NCBI GenBank assembly: GCA_934097015.1
Contig: CAKONF010000002.1
Location: forward strand, 4,214-68,213
From: an uncultured Bacilli bacterium
GTDB taxonomy: Bacteria; Bacillota_I; Bacilli_A; RF39; UBA660
Direction: 5' to 3'
DNA length: 64,000 bases
Below the pieces are notes generated by a model. The model saw only the letters and a program-made list of their open reading frames with translations. It did not search any database and was not told the DNA's origin. Positions 5,963-45,038 of this stretch are shown piece by piece; the stretch's first letter is position 1; each line of letters starts with the position of its first letter. The translations under genes were made by a program, and so were the position numbers.

Positions 5963-6145
5963 CCTTTTTTTTATTGCATTTTTTTGAAAAAAAATTTATG
6001 TTTTTTACAAATATTATTTTTTTGTATCAAAATAGTTAATGATTATTAAAATTTGTATGTAAAATAGTGGTATACCTTTTGTAAAAGTGCTGTTATGTTT
6101 ATGTAAATAAAAATTGATAGTTTTTTATTCTATCAATTCTTTAAC

Positions 6146-6637: not shown

Positions 6638-6667
6638 CTTTCTAGAATCGTATATAAATATACTCTA

Positions 6668-6708
6668 CACTTATATTATTGTGAAAAAATTTGCATTTCC
6701 TTTTTTTC
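6668..6708. repeat. copy 2 of the ~40-bp promoter-like direct repeat
   Basis: Matches 5921-5962 with 2-3 differences. Lies 5' (minus sense) of the Rpn remnant. Confidence 0.8.
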
Positions 6709-6793
6709 TTTAATTTTTTAAAAAAATTTAAAAAAATATACCAATATAAAATATTGGCATATAAAATTTACAGATATATAAATTCTTACATTA

Positions 6794-21929: not shown

Positions 21930-22928
21930 TTATTCTCCATCTATATTAGTTTTTATTGTTTCAAATGTTATGTTATTTCCATCAGATGTTAATTTTATTG
22001 TACCATCTAAGTCTGTTCTATATATTTTTATATTTTTTGCATTTAATTTATCTAAAGTAATTTGTTTAGGATGTTTATATATATTATTTTTACCTACTTC
22101 TATTATTGCATATTTTGGATTTACTTTATCTAAAAAATCATTTGTTGTACTATATTCTGATCCATGGTGTCCTATTTTTAATACATCACTTTCTATATCT
22201 TTCTTAAGTAATTTTTTTTCTACTTTACTAGTTGCATCTCCTGTAAATAAAAATTTATTATTAAAATATGTTAATTTTAAAACTATAGAGTTATTATTTA
22301 AATCTTTTTCATTTGTTCCAGTATATAATACTTTTAATTTTATATTACCATAGTTAAATTCTTCATCTATTTTTGGAACTGTTATTTTATAATTTTTATT
22401 TTCTATGCTATTTAAAACACTTTCAAATGTTTTTGAGGTTGATGTTGCATTAGGCATTAGAATTGTATCTATATCATATTCATCGATTATATTATCTAGT
22501 CCACCAATGTGATCTTCATGTGGATGAGTTCCAACTACCATGTTTAATTTATTTATATTTAAATCTTTTTTTAAATAATTTACTAAATTTTCACCATCTT
22601 CATTGTTTCCAGCATCAATTAAAATATTATAATTATTTTCTTTTATTAAAATTGAATCAGCTTGTCCTACATCAAAATAATATATTTCTAATTTATTAAC
22701 ATCATCATTTTCTGTTTGTTTCATTGCATAAGATGTATTATCTTTTTTAATTAATTCTTTATTAGTATAAAATATTCCTATTAAAACTATTAGTATAAGT
22801 ATTATTTTATTTAGCAATTTATTTATTTTTTTATTATTCATATTATCTACCCTATAAAAGTATAACATATTTTTATTGTTAAAAAAAACTTTATTTTTGT
22901 TTATAAAGCTTTTTTGTTTTAATATCAA
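21930..22928 (-). CDS. membrane-anchored MBL-fold metallo-hydrolase (ComEC C-terminal-domain-like)
   Basis: HPHEDHIGG motif plus KIGHHGS, and an N-terminal TM helix. Confidence 0.8.
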   Translation of the reverse strand: MILKQKSFINKNKVFFNNKNMLYFYRVDNMNNKKINKLLNKIILILIVLIGIFYTNKELIKKDNTSYAMKQTENDDVNKLEIYYFDVGQADSILIKENNYNILIDAGNNEDGENLVNYLKKDLNINKLNMVVGTHPHEDHIGGLDNIIDEYDIDTILMPNATSTSKTFESVLNSIENKNYKITVPKIDEEFNYGNIKLKVLYTGTNEKDLNNNSIVLKLTYFNNKFLFTGDATSKVEKKLLKKDIESDVLKIGHHGSEYSTTNDFLDKVNPKYAIIEVGKNNIYKHPKQITLDKLNAKNIKIYRTDLDGTIKLTSDGNNITFETIKTNIDGE

Positions 22929-23694
22929 TTAATTTATCTTGAGTTTCTTCTAATATTTTTTTTAATGATTTTAATAAATCTATATTGGTAGTTTCAAAAG
23001 TTTTTCCATTTCTATACTTTATTTTTAATTTATTATCTTTATATGAATATTCATCTACTAATTCTTTATTATTGTTTAAAAAATCATCTGCTATCATTAC
23101 TAATGTATCTTTATTATTAGATGTTTTTAAATTTTTTGAAAAGCAGTATAAAGAAGTTTGATTTGTTGGTACTTCGTTAAATAATTCTGCTCCAGATTTC
23201 ATATCTGAATTTAAAATTATTAAATTATCTATTTTATCTTCATTATATAAATCAAATACATTTTCATCTATTTTATTACTTAAATATTGTTTTATTTCAT
23301 CATATTCTATTTTTTCTTTGAAGCTTTCTAATAAATTTCTTATTTCACTATCAATATAATTTGTTGGAATGTTTAATTCTATTACTTTATCATCCTGTAA
23401 AAATATATCAGTCATATCCATTTCAAATCCATTTGTGTTATAAGTTTTATAATTTATTTCTTTTATTTGATAATATTCAATAAAAACATAAACTAAATGC
23501 AAATATACCTCATTAATGTCTTTATATTTTTTTAATAAATATGACATGTATTTTTCAAATTTTTTTATAAAATGTTTTTTATTTATTGCTTCTATTTTTA
23601 AATCAAATATACTTTTATTATTTCTTTTTAAAATTGTATTTAATGTAATTTTATTTATGTGATTTAAAACATATACTATATCTTTTTCGTTCAT
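22891..23694 (-). CDS. hypothetical protein
   Basis: 267-aa ORF. No recognisable motif. Confidence 0.45.
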   Translation of the reverse strand: MNEKDIVYVLNHINKITLNTILKRNNKSIFDLKIEAINKKHFIKKFEKYMSYLLKKYKDINEVYLHLVYVFIEYYQIKEINYKTYNTNGFEMDMTDIFLQDDKVIELNIPTNYIDSEIRNLLESFKEKIEYDEIKQYLSNKIDENVFDLYNEDKIDNLIILNSDMKSGAELFNEVPTNQTSLYCFSKNLKTSNNKDTLVMIADDFLNNNKELVDEYSYKDNKLKIKYRNGKTFETTNIDLLKSLKKILEETQDKLIDIKTKKLYKQK

Positions 23695-23829: not shown

Positions 23830-25818
23830 ATGAAGAAAATATTAAAAAAATTTAAAAAATTAGATTTAAAGTTTAGAATAATGTTTTATATTATTAGTAT
23901 TTTATATTTAGTTTCTATTGTTTTTATAAGTCAAGGGTTATTGCTTCTTAAAAATATTGAAACTAGTTTAAGAATATTATTTTTGGTTATTATATATTTA
24001 AGTTATTTTATATATTTATTTGTTAGTATATTATTATTGTTTAGCAAAAGAAATAAGAGTTATATTGTAAATAGTATATTTATTACTATAATTAGTATTA
24101 TTTTTATAGTAGCTAGTGTTTATCTTAATAAAACTTATAATATTGTTGATAGAATGAATAAAGATGTTGTAATGTATAGCAGTAGCTTAGTTGTTATGAA
24201 AGATACTGAGTTTAAAAATAGTAGTAGTTTTATTGTTGGTATGATTAGTGATGAAAATGATATTGAAGGTAATATACTTGCAAATAAATTAATTGATAAA
24301 AAGAAATTGGATAAAATTGATATTAAGTATTATGATAATTATTTGGAAATGCTTGGAGATTTATATAATAAAAGTATTAATGGTATTTTAGTTAGTAGTG
24401 GTTATGTTGTTAGTTTTTCTGGATATGATAATTATAATAATATTGGAAGTGAAACTAAAATTGTATATACTTATAAAGAAAAAAGAAAAAATATTAGTTT
24501 AAATACTGGTAGTGGTAAGAAGTTAACTGAGCCTTTTACTATTTTGCTACTCGGTGTTGATTCTGAGGTTGATGGTTTAAAAGCTAATCAAGCATTTAAT
24601 GGTGATACTATGATGATGATAACTTTTAATCCCACTACTCTTAATACTACTGTATTTAGTATTCCACGAGACACTTACGCTCCTATTGCTTGTAATGGTA
24701 AGAGAAGTAATAAAATAAATTCTAGTGCCGCAGGTGGTACTACTTGTGTTATAAATACTTTAAAAGATTTAACTGGTATTGATATAGATTATTATGTTAA
24801 GATTAATTTTAAAGGTGTAGTTGATTTGGTTGAAGCTTTGGATGGAATTGAGGTCGATGTTCCAGTTGATTTCTGTGAACAAGATTCTAATAGAGAATTT
24901 GGAGAACATGAAATATGTCTTAAAAAAGGAGTTCAAACTTTAAATGGTGAAGCAGCGTTAGCGTTATCTCGTCATAGACATTCTTTACCTCTTGGTGATT
25001 TTCAAAGAGTTCAACATCAGCAATTAGTTGTTGAGGCAATGGCTAAAAAAGTAAAAAATATAAGAAGCGTTAATAAATTTTATGAAGTACTAGATGCAAT
25101 TAGTAAAAATATTGAAACTAATGTTAGTACTGATGAAATGTTAAATTTATATAATGTTGGTAAAAAGATGCTTTTGGAAAATGATACTAATATTAATATA
25201 GAAAAAACTTATTTAACAGGATATGATTTAACAATGTTAATTCCTGGGTTGGGTAATGTTTATACTTTCCAATATTATCCTGAGAGTTTAAATGAAATAG
25301 TTAAGGCTATGAAAGTTAATTTAGGATTAGAAGAACCTACTATGATTAAAACGTTTAATTTTAGTGCTAATTATACTTATGAAGTTCCTGTTATTGGTAA
25401 ACAATATTATAGTGTTAAGAGAAATGAGGCTTTGCCTAGTTTTGTTGGAAGTAGTTTAGAATATTTAAATACTTGGGCTAATGCAAGAGGTATAACGGTA
25501 AATACTAATTATATAACTGATGGTATGGATGGCTATGATGATAGTAAAAATGGAATTATTACAAGTCAAAGTGTTAGCAAAGGTACATTAGTAAGCGAAG
25601 TTAAAAGTATTACTGTTAGTGTAATAAAAGTTAATAGTAAAAATAATTCTACTAATGAAGATGAAAATGTAGTTAATATTATTGATGAAAATTCTTCTGA
25701 TAAAAATACTGATTCTAACAATACTGAGTCAGATAGTAATAATAGCGATAATGAGGAAAATGTTGAAATACCTAAAAATGAAAATATTGATAATTCTTCT
25801 ATTGATGGCGAAAATTAA
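23830..25818 (+). CDS. LytR-CpsA-Psr (LCP) family cell-wall polymer transferase with a PASTA-like module and an acidic low-complexity tail
   Basis: Multi-TM N-terminus. LCP core (ILLLGVDSE, GDTMMMITFNP, SIPRDTY, LSRHRHSLPLGDFQRVQHQQ). C-terminal ...LPSFVGSSLEYLNTWANARGITVN... Confidence 0.85.
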   Translation: MKKILKKFKKLDLKFRIMFYIISILYLVSIVFISQGLLLLKNIETSLRILFLVIIYLSYFIYLFVSILLLFSKRNKSYIVNSIFITIISIIFIVASVYLNKTYNIVDRMNKDVVMYSSSLVVMKDTEFKNSSSFIVGMISDENDIEGNILANKLIDKKKLDKIDIKYYDNYLEMLGDLYNKSINGILVSSGYVVSFSGYDNYNNIGSETKIVYTYKEKRKNISLNTGSGKKLTEPFTILLLGVDSEVDGLKANQAFNGDTMMMITFNPTTLNTTVFSIPRDTYAPIACNGKRSNKINSSAAGGTTCVINTLKDLTGIDIDYYVKINFKGVVDLVEALDGIEVDVPVDFCEQDSNREFGEHEICLKKGVQTLNGEAALALSRHRHSLPLGDFQRVQHQQLVVEAMAKKVKNIRSVNKFYEVLDAISKNIETNVSTDEMLNLYNVGKKMLLENDTNINIEKTYLTGYDLTMLIPGLGNVYTFQYYPESLNEIVKAMKVNLGLEEPTMIKTFNFSANYTYEVPVIGKQYYSVKRNEALPSFVGSSLEYLNTWANARGITVNTNYITDGMDGYDDSKNGIITSQSVSKGTLVSEVKSITVSVIKVNSKNNSTNEDENVVNIIDENSSDKNTDSNNTESDSNNSDNEENVEIPKNENIDNSSIDGEN

Positions 25819-25846
25819 AGAGACTTTTGTGAAAGTCTCTTTTTTA
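25817..25846. terminator. bidirectional intrinsic terminator between the convergent LCP and membrane-protein genes
   Basis: Perfect 11-bp stem AAAGAGACTTT/AAAGTCTCTTT with a TGTG loop and a T-run. Confidence 0.7.
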
Positions 25847-26410
25847 TATTTTCTTTAAATCAGTTTCTTGATCTTCTTTTTTCTCAGTTTTTTCTTCTTT
25901 ACTAATTTTTTCTATTTTTTTTATTTCATTTTTATTGATTGCTTTTTCTTCTTTTTTTAACATAGTTGGTTTTGATGTTTGTTTAATTAGTGAATCTTTT
26001 ATTTCAGAAACATCTTTGAATAATTTTAGAACTAAAAGTAATAATTCAAAAGCTAAACGTGCTAATATGTTTCCAAATACTAATGTACCAATAAATTCAA
26101 AAAAATTTGTTGTTATATAAGAAAATGATGCTAATGTTATTGCTATTGCAACAATTAAATATAAAACTCTAAATATTGGTTCTATAATAGTTGTTTTAAA
26201 ATTTAGAAAATCATATATCTTTTTTTTATATCCTGTATAAACTCCTTCTTTATCTTTTCCAAAATAATTAGTAAATAAGAATACTCCCCCTATTACAGCA
26301 AGTAATACACTTATAATAATCCATACTTCTGATGTTGAGAATGATTTTGCTGTATTAGTTATTGTATCTGTTATTGCCTTTTCTGTATCATATTGTGGCA
26401 TTTTAATCAC
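25844..26410 (-). CDS. membrane protein (DUF4282-like?) with a Lys/Glu-rich tail, third gene of the HEPN-pair operon
   Basis: Three hydrophobic helices and the same strand, 66 nt downstream of the preceding ORF. Confidence 0.5.
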   Translation of the reverse strand: MIKMPQYDTEKAITDTITNTAKSFSTSEVWIIISVLLAVIGGVFLFTNYFGKDKEGVYTGYKKKIYDFLNFKTTIIEPIFRVLYLIVAIAITLASFSYITTNFFEFIGTLVFGNILARLAFELLLLVLKLFKDVSEIKDSLIKQTSKPTMLKKEEKAINKNEIKKIEKISKEEKTEKKEDQETDLKKI

Positions 26411-26476
26411 ATCCTTCTTTAAGAATATAACACTGAGTTATGAAATTTTCAAGAAATTTTGTTAATATAGTGTATG

Positions 26477-27313
26477 TTATTTACATTTTTTAGTTTTTTC
26501 TTTTTTATAACAATTTGTAGGGAGAAAGGCTTCAGAGTCTAAAAATATTTCATATTCTTTTAAAGGGATTATTATGCTTTTTGTTTTTTTATTTTTTGTA
26601 TCTATGTCTGTAAAACATATCAAATGTTTTAATGTTTCATCATCTATAAAAGTATCAATATTTCCGTGAGCTAAAGAATTTCTAATATGTTCACAAATAA
26701 CCATGTTCCATATTTCAGTATCTGATTTTTCTGGATATTTTTCAGATTTTTTAGAATATAAATCGTTAAAAATATTATTGTCTTCAAGGTTATCTTTGTT
26801 TAATGCTCTAAAAATTATATTATTTTTATTCCAATCTATATTTATTTTATCGTATTGAAGTTCATCAAATTTTGTACTAGTAATATCATTATTTTTTACG
26901 TTTTGTAATCTATATAAAATCAAATATGATTTTAATATTGCTAGTGCCTCGGAACAACAAAAATTACTATATTTATCATCTTTAAAATATTCACTATCAA
27001 TATCAAATATGTCATTACCAATGTTAAATATTACTCCGTAAAAATGAGAAAGCCAATTGTTGATTGTGTCTTTGCCATTAGTTGTATAACATATTATGTT
27101 TCTTATAAGTTCTATTTGGTCTTTTAACTCTTCTTTATAAAAATTTGTAAATAAGCTATTGATAATCGTTATTAAATAATTTGTCATTTCGGGTTTTAAT
27201 ATTCCGCATTCTTCGTTAATATCATTTCCTTGTTCTATTTGTTCTTTTATAATTTTCTTTAATTTTTTTAGTTCAGCAATATTATCATTATCTAAACTAT
27301 CTATTAATTTCAT
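26477..27313 (-). CDS. HEPN-motif protein (paralog B)
   Basis: ICEHIRNSLAHGNIDTF contains a canonical R-N-x3-H HEPN motif (codons at 26666-26683). Shares the NNWL and IRNxLxHxN blocks with the upstream paralog. Confidence 0.5.
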   Translation of the reverse strand: MKLIDSLDNDNIAELKKLKKIIKEQIEQGNDINEECGILKPEMTNYLITIINSLFTNFYKEELKDQIELIRNIICYTTNGKDTINNWLSHFYGVIFNIGNDIFDIDSEYFKDDKYSNFCCSEALAILKSYLILYRLQNVKNNDITSTKFDELQYDKINIDWNKNNIIFRALNKDNLEDNNIFNDLYSKKSEKYPEKSDTEIWNMVICEHIRNSLAHGNIDTFIDDETLKHLICFTDIDTKNKKTKSIIIPLKEYEIFLDSEAFLPTNCYKKEKTKKCK

Positions 27314-27361
27314 ATTTAAACTATTTGTTCCATCATAATTTTTTTGTTTATTTGATATTAC

Positions 27362-28042
27362 TTAAATATGTATTTCTTTTAAGAATTCTTTTAATTCTAT
27401 TTCACTATTTATTCTATTTTTGATAATAGGAAAATGAAGTAAAGTTGTTTTATCTCTTATACTTAATCCACCACAATTTGAAAAATAATTTATAGCAAAA
27501 TTTATAAAATTATTGTTTAGTATTTTTGATTTATAATACTTTTTAATTTTTATAGTTGTAAATGAAATTTCTTCAGAATTCATTTCAAATGTAAAATTAG
27601 AATGTAATAAACCATTTCTTATTGATTTCATTATTTGAATGTTTGTTGCATCTACTGGTCCTTCTATTATTTTTAACCAATTATTAAATATATCATTTTT
27701 ACTTACAATATTATCAAAATCATCTAATATTTTTTTAGAATCTGGAAAAAAATATTCTTTTCTTATATCATTAAATACTCTTATATCATTGTAATTATCT
27801 ATAGTTTCTGATTTTTCGATTGTTTCTTTATTTAATCCTATAAATGCTATTATAATTGTTAATATTAAACTATGTTTTCTTTCTGCAAGAAGTTTACTAT
27901 TATTATATCCTTCAATATTTTGTTTATCTATAAATTCTTTTAATTTTATTTTATCAAAACCATTTCTGTATGCTTCATATAATTGATTTAAGAGTTTAAA
28001 AGCTCTTATATAATATTTATTTTCGTTCGTCATAAAAATCAC
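27362..28042 (-). CDS. HEPN-motif protein (paralog A)
   Basis: IMKSIRNGLLHSNFTF carries the R-N-x3-H motif (27602-27619). The true start is probably the ATG at 28033, preceded by AGGTGA. Confidence 0.5.
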   Translation of the reverse strand: MIFMTNENKYYIRAFKLLNQLYEAYRNGFDKIKLKEFIDKQNIEGYNNSKLLAERKHSLILTIIIAFIGLNKETIEKSETIDNYNDIRVFNDIRKEYFFPDSKKILDDFDNIVSKNDIFNNWLKIIEGPVDATNIQIMKSIRNGLLHSNFTFEMNSEEISFTTIKIKKYYKSKILNNNFINFAINYFSNCGGLSIRDKTTLLHFPIIKNRINSEIELKEFLKEIHI

Positions 28043-28059
28043 CTGCTATATTGTAGCAG

Positions 28060-28110
28060 AAAAATAAAAAAACACAAAATAATTTTTATATTTTTATTTA
28101 ATTATTTTGT
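28060..28110 (-). terminator. putative intrinsic terminator after the amidase 3' fragment
   Basis: 11-bp A/T-rich stem ACAAAATAATT/AATTATTTTGT followed by a T-run on the minus strand. The stem is weak (A/T-rich, only two G/C pairs). Confidence 0.4.
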
Positions 28111-28123
28111 ATTTTAATGAACA

Positions 28124-29383: not shown

Positions 29384-29466
29384 TCATAAGTTTAGTAGCC
29401 ATTGTTTATTATTTACTAGCATTCCACAATTGTTCCGTTTGCGGTATAAAAAGTATATTTATTTTT

Positions 29467-30774
29467 TTAATTTATTATTTTTTGAATATTTTCTTTAAAT
29501 GTTTTATCTGGTTCTATTTGTGGAATATAATGGTGCATATCTCTCGCTCTTTGTTGCTTTCTAGTATATTCATTATCCACGTTTTCAAAATTCCAATATG
29601 TTCTATATGCCTTACCTATATCAAGATACTCATTTTCTAAATATGAGTTTAATTTAGTTAAAAAACCTGAGAATGTATATTTGTCATCTATTTTAAAATT
29701 TAATAATTTAGAGTAATTATTTGCGGTTATACCAACATCATCTTTTATTTTTGCTATATATCTGCTATAATTTCCATGCATTAATTCAGTATAAAACAAT
29801 AAATCCGTATATTTTAAGATCAACAAAAACGTAACAATATAACATTGCTGTTCAGTCCACTTTTCATCCTCAGAAGTTTCTTCATTATTATAAAGTTTAT
29901 ATTTAGATACAAATTCATTAAAAATCTTATTTGAGTCTCTTAACGAAATATTTAATATTTGAAACATTTCAGATATCTTCTTAATTATTTTATCTAAATT
30001 ATAAATATTAGAAGTATCAATCGTTTCATAAAATCTTATAGACAATAAATTATATTGATAATCAAAAAACTTACTAAAATACTTTTCGCTATCCATTTCT
30101 TGACCAAAAATTGTTTTTGCAGATTCTTCAAGTTGTAATTTATCTACAGCTATTATAAATATGCAGTTTTCAACATCAAAGAAATGTTTAATAATTTCTA
30201 AAGTGTCTATAGCAAAGCTTGGTTTACATCTATCTAATTCATCAACAATAAATATTTGCGGTTCTTTACTACAACATTTTTTTAATTTTGTTTCAATTTT
30301 CTTTTTACACGAAACAAACTCATCAAAATCCTTTTTGTAACATTCGTTTTCTATCCCCATGATATTATCTTTTATATCATTTAAATCAACATCATATTTC
30401 TTTTTATAGAAACCATTAATCATAGCATATAAAGATACTAAAATACCTTTACCAAAATTACTGGTAAGTTTAACTAATTTATCTAATTCTTTACCCAATT
30501 TTAATTTATTCTCCATTGATGCAAAAAAAGGTATGTATGGCGTTTCATAAAAATCATATTCATAAGCATTATAATTTAAAAATAAATTCATATTTTCAGA
30601 TTCAATTATTTTTTCTTCTAATTCATTTAAAAATGTACTTTTTCCAGAACCCCATGCACCGTTTAATAAAATAACTAATCCATTTTTACTATTTTCCTTG
30701 TAATCTTCTCTTTTTCTTATTATTTCCAATAAAACATCAACATCAACTTGTCTTGAAACCTTATTCATCTTCAT
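29467..30774 (-). CDS. KAP family P-loop NTPase
   Basis: VILLNGAWGSGKSTFLNEL (Walker A) and QIFIVDELDRCKPSFAIDTLEIIKHFF (the characteristic KAP Walker B block). Confidence 0.8.
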   Translation of the reverse strand: MKMNKVSRQVDVDVLLEIIRKREDYKENSKNGLVILLNGAWGSGKSTFLNELEEKIIESENMNLFLNYNAYEYDFYETPYIPFFASMENKLKLGKELDKLVKLTSNFGKGILVSLYAMINGFYKKKYDVDLNDIKDNIMGIENECYKKDFDEFVSCKKKIETKLKKCCSKEPQIFIVDELDRCKPSFAIDTLEIIKHFFDVENCIFIIAVDKLQLEESAKTIFGQEMDSEKYFSKFFDYQYNLLSIRFYETIDTSNIYNLDKIIKKISEMFQILNISLRDSNKIFNEFVSKYKLYNNEETSEDEKWTEQQCYIVTFLLILKYTDLLFYTELMHGNYSRYIAKIKDDVGITANNYSKLLNFKIDDKYTFSGFLTKLNSYLENEYLDIGKAYRTYWNFENVDNEYTRKQQRARDMHHYIPQIEPDKTFKENIQKIIN

Positions 30775-30809
30775 ATGATCACTCCTTATAGCTTTTTATT
30801 ATATCATTA

Positions 30810-32465
30810 TTATTTGTTTTTTCCAACTCTGCCATAAGGATTTCTTATTTTATTTTCATCAATATAAATAAATTCTATTTGAGGTATAACATCATACTTA
30901 AACTTGATAGTAATATTTCTATCTTTATCTATTATTATCTTATCTATTAGAGCTTCTATTAACTCTCTTTTTGGCTTAGTTAAATCTAATAATTCTTTAA
31001 TCTTTTTAATGTAATTTGGTAATATACTTTGATTATTTCTTGAAGTATATTTTTTTAATTCTTCTTCATCTATTCTTTCAACAATTTGTTTTAATTTTAA
31101 TTCATATGAACTAGCCAATTCTTTATATACATTAGCAGATATTACTCCATCACACCTATCGTTATACAACATAGATATTTTATTAGTAATCTTTTCTTTT
31201 TCTAATTTTAAACCTTTTATAACTTCATCTATATTTTCTTTTTCTTTATGAATATTCTTTGTTATTTCATTATTTAATTTCTCTAAATCCAATTCATTAA
31301 CTAATTCAGATACGACATTATTAATCTTCTCTAATATTTGTTTTTCTAAATAGTTATATGGAAAGAAATGAGAATAACATCTACCTCTAATAGGATCTCT
31401 TGAATATCTATTACAATTAATAGACCAATAATCTTTATTTCTTCTATAAAGTACGGTTAATCGATTACCACATTCTTTACAAAATAATTTACCTTCTAAT
31501 ATCCTTTTTTCTCTTTTTGTTTTTATTTCATAATTTCTTGTTTTTCTTTTTCTTAAAATATTAACATAATTAAAGGTTTCTCTATCCACTAAAGCTTCAT
31601 GAGTATTTTCAACTATAGTCCATAACTTTTCATCAAGTGTTATTTTCTTCTTTGATTTATAATTAACTTTAGTTTGAACATGTTGCACCATATCACCAGT
31701 ATAAATTCTATTTGATAGTATCTTTGTAACTGTTGTAATATTCCAAGTATCTCTATTAATAAGTTGTGATGAATAAGAAGTCTTTTTATAGCTACTTGGA
31801 GTTGGCACTTTCATTTCATTTAGTTTATTTGCTATTTCAGTAGGTCCAACTCCATTAGCTCTTAATTTAAATATTTCTTTCACAATCCAATCTGTTTCTG
31901 GATTAGGTATTAGATGACCTTTATCTTCCGGATCTCTCATATAACCAAAACTAGGTAAACTCCCAACAAATTTCCCATTTAATCTTTTTTGATTTAATAC
32001 TGCTCTAATTTTAACTGAATTTTGTTTACTATAATAATCATTACAAGCAATAATAAATGTAGATGAATCATTACTTGCTTGTTCTTTAAATGTATCAACT
32101 GATTCCGATATAGAAATAAATCTAATATTATTCTCTGGGAAAAATGTTTCTGTATAATATCCGGTCATAACGTGGTCTCTTCCAAATCTAGATAAATCTT
32201 TAACTATTACACAATTTATCTTTTTGCTTTTTATATCTTCTAGCATTTTTTTAAATGCTGGTCTATCAAAATCAGTTCCAGAAAATCCATCATCAACATA
32301 TTCTCCAACTAGATTAAAATTATTACTATTTACATAACTTCTTAATAATTCTTTTTGATTAATTACACTTTCACTATCAGATTCATATTTTTTATCTTTG
32401 TCTTCTTGAGATAATCTTATATAGATTCCAGTATTGAAATCTTTATCAGTTAAGTTATTATTCAT
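30810..32465 (-). CDS. large serine recombinase (integrase)
   Basis: Resolvase catalytic domain (GIYIRLSQED, YVDDGFSGTDFDRP, VKDLSRFGRD), a recombinase domain, a Cys-rich zinc ribbon (CKECGNRL...CNRY...RGRCYSH) and a coiled-coil C-terminus. 551 aa. Confidence 0.9.
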   Translation of the reverse strand: MNNNLTDKDFNTGIYIRLSQEDKDKKYESDSESVINQKELLRSYVNSNNFNLVGEYVDDGFSGTDFDRPAFKKMLEDIKSKKINCVIVKDLSRFGRDHVMTGYYTETFFPENNIRFISISESVDTFKEQASNDSSTFIIACNDYYSKQNSVKIRAVLNQKRLNGKFVGSLPSFGYMRDPEDKGHLIPNPETDWIVKEIFKLRANGVGPTEIANKLNEMKVPTPSSYKKTSYSSQLINRDTWNITTVTKILSNRIYTGDMVQHVQTKVNYKSKKKITLDEKLWTIVENTHEALVDRETFNYVNILRKRKTRNYEIKTKREKRILEGKLFCKECGNRLTVLYRRNKDYWSINCNRYSRDPIRGRCYSHFFPYNYLEKQILEKINNVVSELVNELDLEKLNNEITKNIHKEKENIDEVIKGLKLEKEKITNKISMLYNDRCDGVISANVYKELASSYELKLKQIVERIDEEELKKYTSRNNQSILPNYIKKIKELLDLTKPKRELIEALIDKIIIDKDRNITIKFKYDVIPQIEFIYIDENKIRNPYGRVGKNK

Positions 32466-32943
32466 TTTATATCCTTTTACTTAAATGGGTGTTAAAACAA
32501 ATGAATGATAATATCATAATAAAATTATTGCAAATCATTATTTAAATGATTCTCCTTTTGTTCTTTAATTATCTCTTTAATAAGATATTGTAAAATAAGA
32601 TCTTTAAACGAAATGTTATTCAAGTAGGCTCCTTCCATAATTAAACCACCTATTTAAATTTATGTTTGTATTTATTATTTTTGAATTTTTTTCATATATA
32701 TATCTACTTTCTTTCTTTTTACATTAGTATTACTAATAATTTTATAGAATTATTTATTATATTATTATTGAACCGAATGTCCTTTGAGCGTAAAAAAAAC
32801 ATCTAACTCTTTAAAAAAAATTTTCTAGTAAGTCAGATGTAAACTTTTCTGTATTAATATAAATTTTTCTTTTTTTGTGCTTTTCGATGCTTTTTTGTGC
32901 CGAATGGTATTATTGTTGAAATTATTTGAAGATAAATTATATA

Positions 32944-35900
32944 CTAAAATTTACTACTTGAAATATTAAAGAATTTATTAAAAAAGCTTAATAATTTATC
33001 TATAACATTATTTTTCTTTTCTTGCCTATCATTTGTAGGCGTAAACATGTTCATAGGTGGAAGAATTGCTGATACTTCAGTACCATTTGTTTCTACTCTT
33101 CCTTGTTCAAATGATTTTTGAATAAAATTGTACGTTTCTTCTTTGTTAAGATTTTCTTCAACAATTATTTTATCTAATTCTTCTTTCTTTTTGCTATCCA
33201 TAAATGATTCAAAATCAGCATATACATTTGAATCTTGATCTAATGATTCAATAAATGACATAATTAAATCTTTCTTATTTCTTAAATCTGGACTTGCCAT
33301 GATTGTCTTTTGAATAGTTACAAGAATTTCTTTATCTTCCATGTTGCTATCATGGTATTTCTTAACTAACCCTAAGATATAATCAATATTAACTTCTATA
33401 GATTTAATTAATTCCATTTCAAATACTACATCTTCAGTAACATCAGTTTTTTCTTGCTTAGCTTTATTTCTAAATTCATTATACAGTTCAATATAGATAC
33501 TATGATAATCTTGCTTATCTCTTTCACTAATTAACTCTTCATTATTGAATTCATCAAATGATGATAATATATTGGTTACTTTTAATATTGCACCATAAAG
33601 TTTTATAAACTCTTTTTGTTCTGTCTCACTTTGCATTAACTCACCTGGAATAAATTTAGAAGTCAAATTTTCAACTAATGTCTTGTATCCTTCGAATATT
33701 TTGCCATTCTCATCTTCATATCCATAATAGTAGTCTTTATATGATTTTAATAATACAATGCCACGTGCGTTTTCATCCCCAAATTTAGCAAGTGCTTCAT
33801 TAAGCCTATCTTCTAAATTTCTAAATGAAACTATATTACCATATGTTTTTACACTATTTAAGATTCTATTAGTTCTTGAGAACGCTTGAATTAATCCATG
33901 CCATTTTAAATTCTTATCAACCCATAATGTATTTAATGTTTTTGCATCAAAACCTGTTAAAAACATATTAGCAACGATTAATATATCTATTTCTCTATTT
34001 TTCATTCTTAGAGATACATCTTTATAGTAATTTTGAAATTTTTCTGATGATGTATCATAACTTGTTCCAAACATATTATTATAATCTTTAATAGCATTTT
34101 CTAAAAATGTTCTATCATCTGTACTTAATGCTTCTGTTGATTCAGAGTTTTCATCAATTACTCCATCTTCTCCATTAACACCATAAGAATATATTATTGC
34201 TACTTTAAGATTACTCTTTTTTATATCTAATTGTTTCTTAAATTCAGCATAGTATTCTTTAGCCATTTTAATGTTGGATACAGCAAACAATGAGTTAAAT
34301 CCATTAATATTCTTCTTAGACTTAATTTCTTCTGCATCTTGTTTTTTAGCTACTGCAGAAACATTATCTAAAGTTGAATAAACATAACTTTCAGATGTCT
34401 TAGTTTTTGTACTAAAATGCTCTATTATATAATCTGTAATCAGAGAAATTCTAATTTGGTTATCAAATAGTTTTTCTTCATCAATATTATATACTTTTTC
34501 ATCTTGAACACCCTCACGAATATCAATTCTTCCAACATATTCATATCTAAATGGTAATACATTCTTATCAGCAATAGCATTTACTATTGTATAAGTATGT
34601 AATCTTTCTCCAAAAATTTGTTCTGTTGTTTCAGAGATACCTTTAATAGTTCTAGCATTCTCTGGAAATATTGGAGTTCCAGTAAATCCAAATAAATAAT
34701 ATTTATTAAACTTCTTAATAATAGCTTTATGCATATCTCCAAATTGAGATCTATGACATTCATCAAATATAAATACTACATGTTTATTAAATACATCACT
34801 GTTCTCATTTTTCTTGATAAATTGTGATAATTTTTGAATTGTAGTAATAATAATCTTAGTACTTGGATCATTTAATTGTCCTTCTAATATTTTTGTTGAG
34901 GTATTAGAATTAGCTGCTCCTTCTTTAAATCTGTCGTATTCTTTCATTGTTTGATAATCTAGGTCTTTTCTATCTACAACGAATAGTACTTTATCAATAA
35001 AATCTAATTTCCTAGCAAGTTGTGAAGTTTTGAACGAAGTTAATGTTTTTCCAGAACCCGTTGTATGCCAAATATAACCACCTGATTTTAAAGTTCCATA
35101 AAACTTATTATTATATGCAATATTAATTCTATTTAAAATCTTTTCAGTAGCAACTATTTGATAAGGACGCATTACTAATAAATCTTCTTCAGAAGTAAAT
35201 ACACAATATTTAGTTAATGTATTTAATAACGTATGTTTAGTAAAAAATGTTCTGGCAAAATCAATTAAATCAGTAATACCATTATTTTTTTGATCTGCCC
35301 AATATGAAGTAAATTCAAATGAGTTTGACTTCTTTTTCTTTTGATTATTTATATGAAACTCTCTTGTAGTATTTGAATAATACTTAGTTAATGTTCCATT
35401 TGATATAACAAATATTTGAACAAAGTTATATAATCCTGATCCTGCCCAGAAAGAATCTCTTTGATATCTTTCTATTTGATTAAAAGCTTCTCTTAAATCT
35501 ACTCCTCTTTTTTTTAGTTCTACATGAACTAAAGGTAGTCCATTTACTAAAATAGTTACATCATATCTATTATCATGTTTTCCATCATTATTAACATACT
35601 GATTTAATACTTGAAGACTATTATTATGAATATTATTCTTATCTATTAAATAGATATTTTTCTTCTCATCTGAATCAAGAGTTATTTCTTGTTTATAATC
35701 TTCTTGAATTAATCTTGTCTTTTCAATAATATAATCATTTTTATTTGCTATTACTTTAGTGAAAAAACTATCCCATTCTCCATCACTAAAATGATAATTA
35801 TTAAGTTTTTCTAATTGTTTTCTTAAGTTAAGAATTAATTCATCTTCAGAGTTAATATTTAGTCTTTCATAACCCTGTTCAACTAAAGTTTTAATTAATT

Positions 35901-36012
35901 CTTTTTCTAAAGCATCTTCACTTTGAAAAGATGTTGTTACTCTATTTAATACTTTATACTCAGTAAGTACTGTTGAATTATCATTTTCACTTATTAATCC
36001 TATATTAGTCAT
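32944..36012 (-). CDS. hsdR: type I restriction enzyme R subunit
   Basis: WHTTGSGKTLTS (motif I) and FIFDECHRSQ (DEAH-type motif II). 1022 aa, in an operon with hsdM and hsdS. Confidence 0.92.
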   Translation of the reverse strand: MTNIGLISENDNSTVLTEYKVLNRVTTSFQSEDALEKELIKTLVEQGYERLNINSEDELILNLRKQLEKLNNYHFSDGEWDSFFTKVIANKNDYIIEKTRLIQEDYKQEITLDSDEKKNIYLIDKNNIHNNSLQVLNQYVNNDGKHDNRYDVTILVNGLPLVHVELKKRGVDLREAFNQIERYQRDSFWAGSGLYNFVQIFVISNGTLTKYYSNTTREFHINNQKKKKSNSFEFTSYWADQKNNGITDLIDFARTFFTKHTLLNTLTKYCVFTSEEDLLVMRPYQIVATEKILNRINIAYNNKFYGTLKSGGYIWHTTGSGKTLTSFKTSQLARKLDFIDKVLFVVDRKDLDYQTMKEYDRFKEGAANSNTSTKILEGQLNDPSTKIIITTIQKLSQFIKKNENSDVFNKHVVFIFDECHRSQFGDMHKAIIKKFNKYYLFGFTGTPIFPENARTIKGISETTEQIFGERLHTYTIVNAIADKNVLPFRYEYVGRIDIREGVQDEKVYNIDEEKLFDNQIRISLITDYIIEHFSTKTKTSESYVYSTLDNVSAVAKKQDAEEIKSKKNINGFNSLFAVSNIKMAKEYYAEFKKQLDIKKSNLKVAIIYSYGVNGEDGVIDENSESTEALSTDDRTFLENAIKDYNNMFGTSYDTSSEKFQNYYKDVSLRMKNREIDILIVANMFLTGFDAKTLNTLWVDKNLKWHGLIQAFSRTNRILNSVKTYGNIVSFRNLEDRLNEALAKFGDENARGIVLLKSYKDYYYGYEDENGKIFEGYKTLVENLTSKFIPGELMQSETEQKEFIKLYGAILKVTNILSSFDEFNNEELISERDKQDYHSIYIELYNEFRNKAKQEKTDVTEDVVFEMELIKSIEVNIDYILGLVKKYHDSNMEDKEILVTIQKTIMASPDLRNKKDLIMSFIESLDQDSNVYADFESFMDSKKKEELDKIIVEENLNKEETYNFIQKSFEQGRVETNGTEVSAILPPMNMFTPTNDRQEKKNNVIDKLLSFFNKFFNISSSKF

Positions 36013-36016
36013 TACT

Positions 36017-36649
36017 TCACACTTCCCATCTATACCATTTCTTATAAAATTCCCAATCTTTTTTTAATTTACACATTTGCATATTGCTCATTAAAGTGTT
36101 AATTCTATTTCGTTCATCACAAATAGAATCTAATGTTTCATCAATTAAAGTCTTCGCATTTTTTATATTTTTTTTATTCTTTTTGCCAATATAATCAAGT
36201 GCAAAAAACACCTTCGCGTCAGTTACATTGTACGCATCTAATAAATCAAGATGTTTTGCATAAAAACTGATGTCATTCTTTTCTTTTATTAAATTATTAT
36301 AGGAATTAATTCTAAAATAATATTCATCATAAACTTTTAAATAGTTTTTATTATTTTTAATTTTATTTAAATTGTCTTTAAAACCATGTAGCCATAAATA
36401 ATAATCTCTTATATTATTTAAAAAAATTGTATCTTGTCTTTCACTCTCATTTTTGTAATCAAATATTAATATACATAATGACACAAATGCTCCTGTAATA
36501 GCATTAATTAATATTGTTTCACAAATATCTATTTGATTTGGTGTAGGATGAAATATCTCAACAAAAATCAAAATAATGATTAAGGTAGTAATCAATAAAA
36601 ATAACCAATACATAGAATTTTTTATTTTATTCATACTGTATATCCTCAA
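36017..36649 (-). CDS. 2-TM membrane protein of unknown function embedded between hsdS and hsdR
   Basis: Hydrophobic helices (WLFLLITTLIIILIFVEIF, AITGAFVSLCILIF) followed by a ~140-aa helical soluble part. The likely start, ATG at 36634, overlaps the hsdS stop, and the gene ends 4 nt before the hsdR start. Confidence 0.6.
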   Translation of the reverse strand: MRIYSMNKIKNSMYWLFLLITTLIIILIFVEIFHPTPNQIDICETILINAITGAFVSLCILIFDYKNESERQDTIFLNNIRDYYLWLHGFKDNLNKIKNNKNYLKVYDEYYFRINSYNNLIKEKNDISFYAKHLDLLDAYNVTDAKVFFALDYIGKKNKKNIKNAKTLIDETLDSICDERNRINTLMSNMQMCKLKKDWEFYKKWYRWEV

Positions 36650-37772
36650 AATTTAATAATTTATTTCTATAATATTCATATTGTTTTCTTCTTAATTCTA
36701 TTTCTGCAGGAAGACCGATTGAAATATCACTTATTAATTTTTCAAACTTATCCAATATACCGACTATTCGATTCTGTTCTTCAATCGGAGGAATTATTAA
36801 ATCAAGTTGCTTAACTGTTGGAGTGGTCAATTGTGGAATGCTACCTCCTGATTGCTTAAATTCGTGTCCATATAATGCATAATGTAAATATTTAGCTGAA
36901 ATTATTTTTTCATCTGGAATAAGAGTTATCAAACGAATTATTGGAGTAAACTTGCCATATCTTACTTCGTGATAACCTATTGTGCCTCTTGCAGCTATAG
37001 TTACACATGATTGAACATCTACTTTATAATTTTTACTATATCCATATATAGCATTCTCTCCTACGCCATTTGATATAACCGGATATTTATAATCATCTTG
37101 CGGTTTAGAAATTCCTTTTATTGTATCTTCAGGTACATCACCGCCTGCAGAAATATTTTTGCATACTTCAGTTATATTATATTTTTTATAATTATCATTC
37201 TTTTTATCCAAGAGTATGACACGCCAAAACTCATATTGACTCTTTCTCGTTTCTATCTCCGCTTCTATCTCCGCTTCTAGCTCGCCAAATTTATCAAGAA
37301 TTCGTACTATTTCCTCTTGTACTTCTAATGGAGGTACAGGTACTTTTAGTTTTTCTATCACCCTTCTATCTAATGTAGGAATACCAGCTTTTCTAACTCT
37401 ACCAATAAAATATTTTTCATTATTCTTTAAATAGTGATACAAAAACCTATTAATAAATAAATCATTATGTTCTAAGCAATAGCAACCATCTGAAGACCAA
37501 AAATTATTTTTTGAATATCCAACTACACCTGCAGATGCTCCAACATTTATTATCATAACGGTATCACTAAAACGATTATATTTATTATAATAACCTAAAG
37601 GGTTCAAACCACCATGATATACAGGATAATTTGCTTCAAAATTTAATTTTTTTATTGTTAATCTCTTTCCTCTTAATACCTTTGAAAAGCTTGAAATTGC
37701 TTTATATTTAACTCCATTAGGACACAACTCTTTTATTAAATCGTTTATCTTACTCATGATAATCAACCTCAA
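36627..37772 (-). CDS. hsdS: type I R-M specificity subunit
   Basis: Two target-recognition halves separated by conserved helices: PPLEVQEEIVRILDKFGELEAEIEAEIETRKSQYEFWR and PPIEEQNRIVGILDKFEKLISDISIGLPAEIELRRKQYEYYR. Confidence 0.9.
   Translation of the reverse strand: MRLIIMSKINDLIKELCPNGVKYKAISSFSKVLRGKRLTIKKLNFEANYPVYHGGLNPLGYYNKYNRFSDTVMIINVGASAGVVGYSKNNFWSSDGCYCLEHNDLFINRFLYHYLKNNEKYFIGRVRKAGIPTLDRRVIEKLKVPVPPLEVQEEIVRILDKFGELEAEIEAEIETRKSQYEFWRVILLDKKNDNYKKYNITEVCKNISAGGDVPEDTIKGISKPQDDYKYPVISNGVGENAIYGYSKNYKVDVQSCVTIAARGTIGYHEVRYGKFTPIIRLITLIPDEKIISAKYLHYALYGHEFKQSGGSIPQLTTPTVKQLDLIIPPIEEQNRIVGILDKFEKLISDISIGLPAEIELRRKQYEYYRNKLLNFEDIQYE
37251..37286. repeat. 12-bp tandem repeat (2 perfect copies plus 1 degenerate) inside the hsdS central conserved helix
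   Basis: TTCTATCTCCGC TTCTATCTCCGC TTCTAGCTCGCC on the plus strand encodes (L)EAEI-EAEI-E on the minus strand. Confidence 0.85.
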
Positions 37773-39345
37773 GTTCTTTAATTATTTCTTCTAGTTCTTC
37801 TCTAATTTGTTGTTGTCTAGGTACAATTTCAGCAAGCTTTCTATTTACTTCTTCTATATCGATTTTTTTATCTTCAGTATTTGTTTTTACATATGAATTA
37901 ACTGAGATATTATAATCATTATCTTTGATTTCTTCATAAGTTGCTAAATAGGATTTATTTTCAATTGATTTTCTATTCTTTAAGAAACTAATTATATTAT
38001 TAATGTTTTCTTCTGATAATTTGTTTTTATTAGATTTTCTAACATATTCACTAGAGGCATCTACAAATAATATATTATTATCTAATTTATTTTTCTTTAA
38101 TACTAAAATACAAGTTGCAATTGATGTACCAAAGAATAAATCAGAAGGTAATTGAATGACAGTATCAACAAAGTTATTATCAATCATATATTTTCTAATC
38201 TTTTGCTCTGCTCCACCTCTATAAAGAACTCCAGGAAATTCAACTATTGCAGCAGTTCCTTTTGGAGAAAGCCATGACAACATATGCATAGTAAAAGCTA
38301 AGTCTGCTTTTGATACTGGTGCCAACACACCAGCTGGAGCAAATCTTTCATCATTTATTAATAGTGGATTAGACTTGCCTGCCCATTTTATTGAATAAGG
38401 GGGATTAGATACTATTGCATCAAATGGTTCATCATTCCAATGTACTGGATGTATTAATGTATCTCCTCTTTCAATACTAAAGTTATTATAATTGATATTA
38501 TGTAAGAACATATTTATTCTAGCTAAGTTGTATGTTGTAAGATTTATTTCTTGACCGAAAAATCCTTCTCTTACATTTTCTTTTCCAAGTATCTTCGCAA
38601 ATTTAAGTAATAATCCACCTGAACCACAAGCAGGATCATATACTTTATTAACAGATGTTTTATCCATTATTACTATTTTAGCAAGTAATTCTCCAACTTC
38701 TTGTGGAGTAAAAAATTCTCCACCTGATTTACCTGCTGATGATGCATACATTGTCATTAAAAATTCATAAGCATCTCCAAATAAATCTATCTTATTTTCT
38801 TCATAATCTCCAAAATTCAATTCTCCTATTGCACTTAATAATTTAACAAGTTTTTCGTTTCTTTCATCAACTGTATTACCCAATTTATTATCTATGGTAA
38901 AATCATCAAATAACCCTTTAACATCATTCTCTGATGCAGTTCCTCTTGCTGATGATTCAATATTATTAAATATATTAGAAATTACTACATTTAAATTTTC
39001 ATTTTTATCGGCATTTTTTCTAACGTTACAAAATAATTCACTAGGTAAAATAAATAATCCTTTTTCTTCTAATATTTGTGTTTTTCCCAATAATGCTTCA
39101 TCATCAGATATATTTCTATATTTAAAATCTTCAATACCTACTTTTCTTTGATTTTCATTAACATAATTTTCTATATTTTCTGAAATAAATCTATAAAATA
39201 ATAGACCTAATACATATTGTTTAAAATCCCATCCATCTACTGAACCTCTTAAATCATTTGCTATTTTCCAAATAGTTTTATGCAATTCTTCTCTTTCAAT
39301 CTCTTTTTTATTATTCATTAACTTCCACACTCCTAGTACTTTCAT
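37750..39345 (-). CDS. hsdM: type I R-M N6-adenine DNA methyltransferase subunit
   Basis: HsdM N-terminal domain (LHKTIWKIANDLRGSVDGWDFKQYVLGLLFYRF), DPACGSGG (SAM-binding motif) and VSNPPYSIKW (NPPY motif). The true start is probably the internal MNNKKEIE. Confidence 0.92.
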   Translation of the reverse strand: MKVLGVWKLMNNKKEIEREELHKTIWKIANDLRGSVDGWDFKQYVLGLLFYRFISENIENYVNENQRKVGIEDFKYRNISDDEALLGKTQILEEKGLFILPSELFCNVRKNADKNENLNVVISNIFNNIESSARGTASENDVKGLFDDFTIDNKLGNTVDERNEKLVKLLSAIGELNFGDYEENKIDLFGDAYEFLMTMYASSAGKSGGEFFTPQEVGELLAKIVIMDKTSVNKVYDPACGSGGLLLKFAKILGKENVREGFFGQEINLTTYNLARINMFLHNINYNNFSIERGDTLIHPVHWNDEPFDAIVSNPPYSIKWAGKSNPLLINDERFAPAGVLAPVSKADLAFTMHMLSWLSPKGTAAIVEFPGVLYRGGAEQKIRKYMIDNNFVDTVIQLPSDLFFGTSIATCILVLKKNKLDNNILFVDASSEYVRKSNKNKLSEENINNIISFLKNRKSIENKSYLATYEEIKDNDYNISVNSYVKTNTEDKKIDIEEVNRKLAEIVPRQQQIREELEEIIKELEVDYHE

Positions 39346-39389
39346 TTACAATTATATCATGAATTTTGTTTTTTTGGGGTTTAATTCCA

Positions 39390-39417
39390 GCAAAAAAGAA
39401 GAAATTAATCTTCTTCT
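39390..39417 (-). terminator. intrinsic terminator after the Fic gene, separating it from the hsd operon
   Basis: Minus-strand AGAAGAA-GATTAAT-TTCTTCT followed by TTTTTT. Confidence 0.6.
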
Positions 39418-39542
39418 GTATGTCTATTTTTTATTTATAGTATTCAACATTATAATTTTGATTGTTATCAAGTATTAGTTCTAAATTAAATTTCTATTTA
39501 TTAGCATCTCTTATTATTTAAAATTTATAAAAATACTATAAA

Positions 39543-40085
39543 TTAATTATTTTTATCAAACAATTCTTGAACAATTAAATCCTTTGAATATAGATTATTG
39601 TTCTTACCTAATAATAAATTTTCATAAAATTTAACTAAATAACTACTATCTTCTTTTATATTTAAATAATTATTAAAATAATTACTTCTTACTAAAGCAT
39701 TTCTAAAATAAACTGATTTATCTTTAAATAAACTATTATCAACTTTATAACCCAAACTAATTAAATACTTTTCAATAAATAAAGCTGTAGTTCTAGTATT
39801 TTCTTCTCTAAAAGGATGGACTTGCCATATACTGGAAGAAAACTTAGTTATGTTATTAATAACTTCAACTATATTCATTTTTTTATAATTTTTTTCTACC
39901 TCTTCTATTGTTAAATTACCTTCTACTTCTTCCACTAATAATCTTTCTAAGTATTTAGAAGGTTTTAAATTATCAACTTCTTGTAATCCAATAGCCATAT
40001 CCCATTGCAACTGTTTTTCATAATTACTAGATTTATAGCTTTCTTCATATTCATTAGCACTCGAATCTAATTCTTTTTCGTCCAT
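39543..40085 (-). CDS. small Fic/Fido-fold protein with a degenerate active-site motif
   Basis: HPFREENTRTTALF, versus the canonical HPFxxGNGRxxR. 180 aa. Confidence 0.6.
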   Translation of the reverse strand: MDEKELDSSANEYEESYKSSNYEKQLQWDMAIGLQEVDNLKPSKYLERLLVEEVEGNLTIEEVEKNYKKMNIVEVINNITKFSSSIWQVHPFREENTRTTALFIEKYLISLGYKVDNSLFKDKSVYFRNALVRSNYFNNYLNIKEDSSYLVKFYENLLLGKNNNLYSKDLIVQELFDKNN

Positions 40086-40129
40086 AATTTAAACCTCCTA
40101 ACTATATATAATCATAACATATATTTGAA

Positions 40130-42187: not shown

Positions 42188-42203
42188 GTTTTCAACTCCT
42201 CTG

Positions 42204-44477: not shown

Positions 44478-44723
44478 CTCTAATTAAAAAATAAGCAGTA
44501 TCCATCTTAAAAAGATTAAATACTGCTCATCTTTATAAATATATATTATCATACTTCGACATTTTTTTCAGTATTTTCAGGACAATTTACTATTTTTTTA
44601 GTTAAAAAACAAAAAAATAGCATTTATTCTTCAAATAAACACTATTTCTACAATATTTAATATCTTTCTAGATATTTATACTATCTAGCTCGATTGCTTA
44701 AATACAGCCGTCTTAATACCCAA

Positions 44724-45038
44724 TCAAATTATGTAATGGTAAGTAAACTCGCCACCTCCTGCATTTATGTGATTAGATATAATTAGTACATCTTTATCAT
44801 TTCCAAATTTTGATAAAGCTACACCTGGTCTATCATCACTAGTCAAAGTTATATCACTATCGCGTGTTAAAGCAACTGGAATACCCAACTCTTTAAATCT
44901 ATCATACATATATTTACTAATTTCTAAAGTTAAATTTTTCTCAATTATACCATTACCTGAAGCTCCTTGATCTTCTCCGCCATGTCCAGCATCAATAACA
45001 ATACCTTTTAAAGCTCTTGTATAGTTCATTTTAATCAC
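44724..45038 (-). pseudogene. 5' portion of the interrupted amidase (Amidase_3 N-terminal half), ending in element-derived codons
   Basis: MNYTRALKGIVIDAGHGGEDQGASGNGIIEKNLTLEIS...LIISNHINAGGG, then EFTYHYII* read from the element end. No signal peptide. Confidence 0.85.

Follow-up and report, generated by a model that had tools for sequence, protein, structure and literature searches.

A dual R-N-x3-H gene interrupted by a nonsense codon in an uncultured Bacilli bacterium, and its candidate kinship with HEPN ribonucleases

Two adjacent open reading frames (ORFs A and B) on the minus strand of a 64,000-nucleotide stretch of DNA from an uncultured Bacilli bacterium (contig CAKONF010000002.1, positions 4,214 to 68,213; the whole stretch is hereafter the window) are the halves of one gene, which carries a Gln224-to-stop change. 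The intact form of this gene encodes a protein of 518 amino acids (aa) with one R-N-x3-H motif in each half, which we judge, with a probability of about 0.6, to be a single-chain HEPN-like ribonuclease (RNase) whose motifs act together, and which serves as a solitary effector of the toxin or abortive-infection type. For this protein we infer RNase chemistry, the juxtaposition of the two motifs, and a role in defence or toxicity.

One reading frame interrupted at codon 224

A first-pass annotation, made from the sequence alone, had described two tandem paralogous genes whose products would pair as a heterodimeric HEPN RNase. The three minus-strand ORFs that it listed are present, the third being that of a membrane protein, as are the RNxxxH and NNWL motifs on which it drew. 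The reading of ORF A and ORF B as separate genes was nevertheless dropped, because three observations identify them as one. Firstly, translation of 26474-28042 on the minus strand places both ORFs in the same frame, with a lone TAA between them, and the 16 codons that had seemed intergenic, VISNKQKNYDGTNSLN, can be aligned with NYDGxN(S/T)(L/V), the linker that unbroken homologues carry (Table 1). Secondly, a profile search recovered an intact orthologue, P0061, which is uninterrupted over 518 aa, is 95% identical to the read-through translation of the window gene, and has Gln at position 224. This protein is encoded in four ENA samples, on contigs L002-L005 (contigs carrying family loci are labelled L001-L005, L009-L012, L015, L019 and L020, and family proteins P0018, P0034 and P0061). 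In these four contigs codon 224 is CAA, where the window has TAA, and the gene order is the same as in the window, running from the amidase through the dual-motif gene and the small membrane protein gene to a convergent LytR gene. Thirdly, the relatives are fused. When ORF B was run in a full HMMER scan, 47 representatives were retrieved, mostly of 480-530 aa, in which ORF B matches the C half only and the N halves are homologous to ORF A. About 70 more distant relatives are single chains of 480-530 aa, and nearly all relatives are unsplit. The expectation that a gene pair would be conserved across genomes was thus not borne out, the only other split copy (in L019) being a frameshift, and with it falls the heterodimer of tandem paralogues, which is replaced by a stop codon in one gene. 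The ATG of ORF B, 48 nucleotides past the stop, has no Shine-Dalgarno sequence, a feature possessed by most other genes checked in the window. Recoding of the TAA as Gln was rejected, as neighbouring genes end normally on TAA.

Table 1. Features of the dual R-N-x3-H gene, its predicted protein and its surroundings, with positions in the window. Residue numbers refer to the intact 518-aa protein unless another protein is named.
Feature	Position	Strand	Description or basis
Dual R-N-x3-H gene	26477..28033	-	One 519-codon frame (518 aa + stop), interrupted at codon 224; in-frame translation, P0061, fused homologues
ORF A	27362-28042	-	223 aa; likely start ATG at 28033 behind AGGTG Shine-Dalgarno
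ORF B	26477-27313	-	278 aa
Premature TAA, codon 224	27362..27364	-	C-to-T transition, orthologues having CAA (Gln); codon comparison with L002-L005
Inter-half linker, 16 codons	27314..27361	-	Conserved; DNA nearly identical in L002
Upstream intergenic region	28042..28115	-	AT-rich hairpin and T-run after amidase stop, then short hairpin 28042-28060; conserved in L002
Motif 1, R139-N140-G-L-L-H144 (N half)	27602..27619	-	R139, N140, H144 invariant in A1 and A2; end of helix 131-143
Motif 2, R451-N-S-L-A-H456 (C half)	26666..26683	-	R451, H456 invariant; end of helix 438-455; region matches PF18736
NNWL, N half	27674..27685	-	W119, L120 at least 90% conserved; strand 120-124 in model
NNWL, C half	27050..27061	-	W327 at least 90% conserved; within helix 320-336 in model
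G66-L-N68-K69-E70-T, start of GLNKETIEK	27821..27838	-	G66, N68, K69, E70 invariant
N-half module			Helix 131-143, strands 147-172, helix 173-184; AlphaFold2 model
C-half module			Helix 438-455, strands 459-490, helix 491-498; AlphaFold2 model
Membrane protein gene	25844..26401	-	185 aa, three hydrophobic segments and K/E-rich 50-aa tail by hydropathy; ORF 25844-26410, likely start 26401
Bidirectional terminator hairpin	25817..25842	.	A/T runs both sides; shared with convergent LytR-family gene
Amidase residues 1-94	45029-44748	-	Amidase_3 + LysM gene, split by insert
Amidase residues 88-509	29395-28130	-	Amidase_3 + LysM gene, split by insert
Large serine recombinase	30810-32465		One end of insert
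KAP-family NTPase	29467-30774		Insert cargo; PADLOC PDC-S20 match, E = 9e-55
Type I restriction-modification, HsdR	32944-36012		Insert cargo
Type I restriction-modification, HsdS	36627-37772		Insert cargo
Type I restriction-modification, HsdM	37750-39345		Insert cargo
SMEK + nSTAND3 NTPase	42204-44477		Insert cargo

Between the window allele and the intact one there are 20 synonymous and 22 non-synonymous differences, giving a ratio of non-synonymous to synonymous substitution rates (dN/dS) of 0.225 that is even across both halves. Hence the gene was under purifying selection for most of this divergence, and the stop is recent. The halves in the window retain every invariant residue and have acquired no further lesions, and the window copy is most likely a recently inactivated allele, with a presumed loss of function: an N half of 223 aa could still be made, with no Shine-Dalgarno of its own for the C half. 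This copy is therefore probably dead, and its direct importance is limited accordingly. That the stop is instead an artefact of assembly or sequencing, with CAA as the real codon 224 and the gene intact, is highly improbable. The difference from the orthologue is a single base, all relatives are metagenome-assembled genomes (MAGs) or metagenome contigs, and a metagenome-derived source is probable; however, contig L001 (ENA sample ERZ27287052), which is 99.99% identical to the window (1 mismatch in 9074 bases) and may derive from the same data, has this TAA too, and the site (ATT-TAA-GTA) lies outside any homopolymer.

A rival reading is a functional gene fission, in which the stop in the linker is tolerated and each half is made on its own, with re-initiation at the ATG 48 nucleotides downstream yielding the C half; the halves would then re-associate as a two-subunit enzyme, in effect the heterodimer of the first-pass annotation. 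Every invariant residue is kept in both halves, dN/dS is alike in both, and the isolated C half of the window protein models confidently (predicted local distance difference test, pLDDT, 85.3; predicted template modelling score, pTM, 0.78). Furthermore, an independent lineage is broken in the same linker: the L019 homologue (6049-7630; 38% identity; from a Bacilli MAG) has a frameshift at residues 252-257, with its N half in frame 1 up to 6828 and its C half in frame 2 from 6845, making it a second, independent break at the domain boundary. Yet neither the downstream ATG in the window nor the corresponding TTG in L019 is preceded by a Shine-Dalgarno sequence, and the 95%-identical orthologue is single-chain, as are nearly all relatives. 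The dN/dS value spans the whole divergence, and so cannot show constraint since the stop arose, and a preference for the linker could not be established from two events. Decay is plain in other copies of the family, L020 being reduced to a solo C half, and P0018 and P0034 being internal-deletion forms. Functional fission is consequently quite unlikely, and we favour the recent inactivation of a single-chain gene.

Upstream of this gene, the hairpin and T-run that the first-pass annotation had placed after the amidase stop were both seen, the hairpin being AT-rich. The second, shorter hairpin at 28042-28060 on the minus strand (TCTGCTA-CAATA-TAGCAGG), which is followed by a T-run and is conserved in L002, overlaps the AGGTG Shine-Dalgarno sequence of the HEPN-like gene. 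It could be the remnant of a terminator, or could occlude the ribosome-binding site of the HEPN-like gene.

Paired motifs and predicted fold

The open segments of 90 aa or more in the window total 22,325 aa; in all of them together, RNxxxH is found exactly twice, against 0.59 expected, and NNWL exactly twice, against 0.086 expected. All four occurrences fall in ORF A and ORF B, in identical order, placing the motifs far from chance. Conservation was read from two alignments, A1 and A2, comprising 34 and 37 full-length members that share 22-41% identity with the window protein. In these homologues both motifs have an invariant R and H, as the HEPN interpretation required, and the N of the first motif is invariant too, with position 452 being either N or D (R451 to H456 correspond to R211 to H216 of ORF B). 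On this evidence, the two motifs are genuine and under functional constraint.

These motifs resemble those of HEPN domains, which have been described as carrying an Rx4-6H motif that closes a helix and has N, D or H, all polar, next to the R, often with an upstream Ex3[KR] (Anantharaman et al. 2013, PMC3710099). Both motifs have the R-x4-6-H form with a polar residue after the R across the 34 and 37 sequences, and in the AlphaFold models of both halves the motif is found at the end of the core helix, where a loop starts. In the N half, E70-T-I-E-K74 would fit the acidic Ex3[KR] motif; upstream of motif 2, no equivalent invariant acidic residue was found in the alignment of the C half.

The proposed paralogy of the halves, which had been based on their shared blocks, stands only in part. 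Both blocks do occur in the same order, but similarity is confined to the motif helix, with NNWL and RN lying some 20 aa apart in one half and some 120 aa apart in the other, and NNWL being modelled as a strand in the N half and as part of a helix in the C half. BLASTP aligned 38 residues between the halves (E = 0.012), a likeness restricted to the motif helix, and profile-profile comparison with hhalign aligned 19 columns only (E = 0.0019, probability 14%). Because only 19 columns align, the sequences suggest that any paralogy is at best ancient. An internal duplication was rejected, as the hhalign comparison of the N-half and C-half profiles aligns the motif alone.

An AlphaFold2 model of P0061, using the 37-sequence alignment, has a pLDDT of 88.6 and a pTM of 0.92; the high pTM would imply a defined packing of the two halves. 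In each half, a long helix ending in R-N-x3-H is predicted to be followed by a three-strand beta-meander and then a helix, with beta-strand making up about one third of each half. As modelled, the fold has no close solved relative.

The link to known HEPN families comes principally through PF18736 (HEPN pEK499_p136), which matches 13 of the 37 members at E <= 0.1, with a best E of 2.5e-8. These matches are always on C halves, cover profile positions 55-147, and mostly fall below the curated gathering cut-off of 26.6 bits; intact P0061 has no PF18736 match at E <= 0.1. A weak match to RTasHEPN in PADLOC was found for 6 of the 37 members (best E = 0.0019), while neither PADLOC nor NCBIfam had a match to the ORFs of the locus taken one by one, and NCBIfam gave only noise on the whole family. 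No Pfam match of the family to Abi_2, DUF86 or HEPN was found. Hence the profile searches proposed in the first-pass annotation yielded a sub-threshold PF18736 match on the C half, but neither Abi_2 nor any match for the N half.

Multiple results weigh against an HEPN-like RNase. Foldseek searches with the full-length and C-half models returned nothing at the significance threshold of E <= 0.001 in the PDB or BFVD databases, and there was no HEPN entry among the top 50 PDB hits of either model, in which a beta-meander follows each motif helix. The best, non-significant hits were instead to PAS/Cache-like and TCTP folds, and neither phmmer nor profile searches against PDB sequences yielded anything beyond noise. 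At the level of families, ORF B of the window scores only 16.5 bits against PF18736 (E = 0.0074), under the cut-off; the N half matches no family at all; and the profile-profile alignment of the halves is very short. Additionally, no antitoxin or regulator was found that would explain the tolerance of a constitutive RNase, and many homologues are located amid housekeeping genes, without defence neighbours. The HEPN signature first proposed for the two ORFs therefore holds for the motif, through the invariant R and H of the 34-37 homologues and the weak PF18736 link of the C half; the Foldseek check on the models returned no HEPN structure.

A contrasting explanation is that the protein has a non-HEPN alpha/beta fold with a convergent motif, in which the invariant R-N-x3-H binds a ligand or has another role, and the PF18736 hits reflect the short motif only. 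Both the lack of a structural match to any HEPN structure and the one-third beta-strand content of each half are consistent with such a fold, as are the PAS/Cache-like sensor folds that lead the weak Foldseek results. The Pfam matches are mostly sub-threshold and confined to the profile positions around the motif, and PF18736 itself is defined only computationally. Nevertheless, the details of the motif are HEPN-like (the polar residue after R, the four-residue spacing, the position at a helix end and the Ex3K of the N half), the best Pfam match reaches E = 2.5e-8, and the weak match to PADLOC RTasHEPN is independent of it. Moreover, small helical bundles that carry large inserts are poorly handled by Foldseek, so its silence is not decisive. 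A non-HEPN fold is somewhat unlikely, in an assessment that is orthogonal to the other readings; the HEPN-like RNase remains our preferred interpretation.

A candidate single-chain effector and its known counterparts

The intact product, a cytoplasmic protein of about 518 aa, most likely folds into one compact body, within which the two motif-bearing modules probably work as an intramolecular pseudo-dimer. By analogy with the two HEPN domains of Cas13, or with an HEPN homodimer, this pairing would give one metal-independent RNase site. The idea of two motifs working together would thereby survive from the first-pass annotation, but within one polypeptide rather than in a heterodimer. The gene is solitary and occupies variable chromosomal spots in uncultured, very AT-rich Bacilli. 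Its product is probably a latent toxin or an abortive-infection-type defence effector, needing a trigger to act.

Among the closest known families is PF18736 (Anantharaman et al. 2013, PMC3710099), which the C half matches around the R-N-x3-H helix and the following segment, and which is also represented by a second protein, of 835 aa, at the locus of the L012 homologue. The Pfam model, however, is a single domain of about 150 aa, whereas the dual-motif family is about 510 aa long, with a second, unmatched N half that bears its own motif. PF18736 is itself without a solved structure or tested function, and its description mentions sporadic association with defence genes of the restriction-modification, ART/Macro and Pgl kinds.

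The arrangement of two R-x4-6-H motifs in one polypeptide, with what would by analogy be a single composite RNase site, is shared with Cas13. Yet Cas13 proteins are roughly 900-1300 aa in size, in contrast to about 518 aa here; there is no CRISPR (short palindromic repeats, clustered and regularly interspaced) array or repeat in or near the window locus, and no guide-RNA logic; and neither sequence nor Foldseek searches found similarity to any PDB entry, Cas13 structures included. With the HepT/MntA type VII toxin-antitoxin system and the Abi_2 (AbiD/AbiF) proteins, the family shares a motif of the form [IV]RN[GS]L[LA]H, an occurrence as solitary or small-operon genes in variable regions, and a proposed abortive-infection or toxin role. 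Unlike HepT/MntA, there is no adjacent MNT nucleotidyltransferase or other antitoxin candidate in the window or the homologue loci, and whereas HepT and Abi_2 form homodimers, the dual-motif family has both motifs in one chain. Similarly, RTasHEPN goes with defence reverse transcriptases (DRT), whereas no reverse transcriptase was found among the called genes of the loci examined.

Nothing on the dual-motif family, which is rare and unstudied, came up when the literature was searched for defence proteins with tandem or two HEPN domains. The family could represent a previously unrecognised, stand-alone dual-HEPN RNase, in which two diverged modules extended by beta-meanders form a composite site, without CRISPR; this would be a defence or toxin effector of uncultured AT-rich Bacilli, under the control of a trigger and in a fold yet to be solved, and which the linker breaks in the window and L019 suggest might be capable of working as two subunits; in this full form the proposal is unlikely. 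Were the intact protein a dual-HEPN-motif RNase, it would parallel the Cas13 arrangement in compact form and independently of CRISPR, and would open a first way into the pEK499_p136 branch of the HEPN superfamily. The new aspect is a dual-motif, beta-extended architecture at the edge of the HEPN family PF18736, and the family offers a confidently predicted fold without a solved relative. Its naturally occurring alleles, with nonsense, frameshift and deletion lesions, offer ready-made loss-of-function controls, and point to the fluctuating selection typical of defence or toxin genes. There is also a lesson for annotation, in that a single stop within a frame can be mistaken for a "tandem paralogue operon".

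Genomic setting of the family and the window locus

Members of the family came only from metagenome contigs and from three MAGs with the label Bacilli or Bacillota. Word-indexed homology searches with each ORF by itself returned only the query for ORF B and nothing for ORF A, and single-protein scans of genome, metagenome and viral contigs gave nothing. A tblastn search with the intact orthologue had no match in plasmid and phage collections, and therefore the family has not been seen on known mobile replicons.

The neighbours of the gene differ by lineage, and include a cation ATPase, Fe-hydrogenase, DUF1846, sugar epimerases and HSP20/HSP90. Some loci have neighbours of a defence type, such as an N6/N4 methyltransferase with an SRA-HNH protein (L009), or the second PF18736 protein of L012. 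Across lineages, there was no conserved neighbour, whether membrane protein, MNT or reverse transcriptase, and no CRISPR-like repeats were detected in or near the locus. Within one subclade (L009, L010, L011 and L015), a 260-aa protein that matches only the N-terminal domain of S-adenosylmethionine (SAM) synthetase (PF00438) is encoded directly upstream, at 5158-5940 in L009.

Downstream of the dual-motif gene in the window, hydropathy confirmed the three-segment membrane protein with a K/E-rich tail that the first-pass annotation had described, and the bidirectional terminator beyond it was found as a hairpin with A/T runs on both sides. The view that this gene ends the unit did not hold, as it has its own promoter-like site at 26452-26424 (TTGAAA-17-TATATT, with a TG-extended -10) and its own Shine-Dalgarno sequence, is not beside any distant homologue in the neighbourhoods examined, and is truncated in L002-L005. 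In those contigs a TGA at codon 122 leaves 121 aa, with the remainder still in frame, whereas the full 185 aa are encoded in the window. A role as a partner in the manner of Cas13b-Csx28 was rejected, because the membrane protein is not conserved beside the dual-motif gene; it is probably an unrelated neighbour, and not part of the system. A reciprocal pattern was observed in two lineages only, with an intact HEPN-like gene accompanying a cut membrane protein gene in L002-L005, and the opposite combination in the window.

On the other side, the locus lies beside, and outside, an integrated element, as first described. An insert of about 15.4 kb, at about 29386-44748, splits an Amidase_3 + LysM gene, and the junction falls on an AGGTG core within GCAGGAGGTGCCGAAGG, as read in the intact amidase gene of L002. 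Its cargo, at 29467-44477 on the minus strand, is a stack of defence genes (Table 1), and it also encodes unknown proteins of 210, 180 and 685 aa. L005 (1-1241) has different DNA at exactly the same amidase site, and L019 (1982-5969) has a 52%-identical serine recombinase beside a truncated amidase, such that, in this lineage, the active-site region of the amidase seems to serve repeatedly as the place where serine-recombinase elements attach. The idea that inactivation of the dual-motif gene was connected with the arrival of the element was rejected, as L005 has another insert at the same site yet an intact gene.

Two further features of the window were recorded. A 267-aa ORF at 22891-23694 on the minus strand has no Pfam match, and is conserved as a 266-aa gene in L002-L004, adjoining the LytR-family gene. 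A SAM riboswitch (RF00162, 58.2 bits) is located at 61102-61188 on the minus strand, upstream of a 368-aa ORF at 59927-61033.

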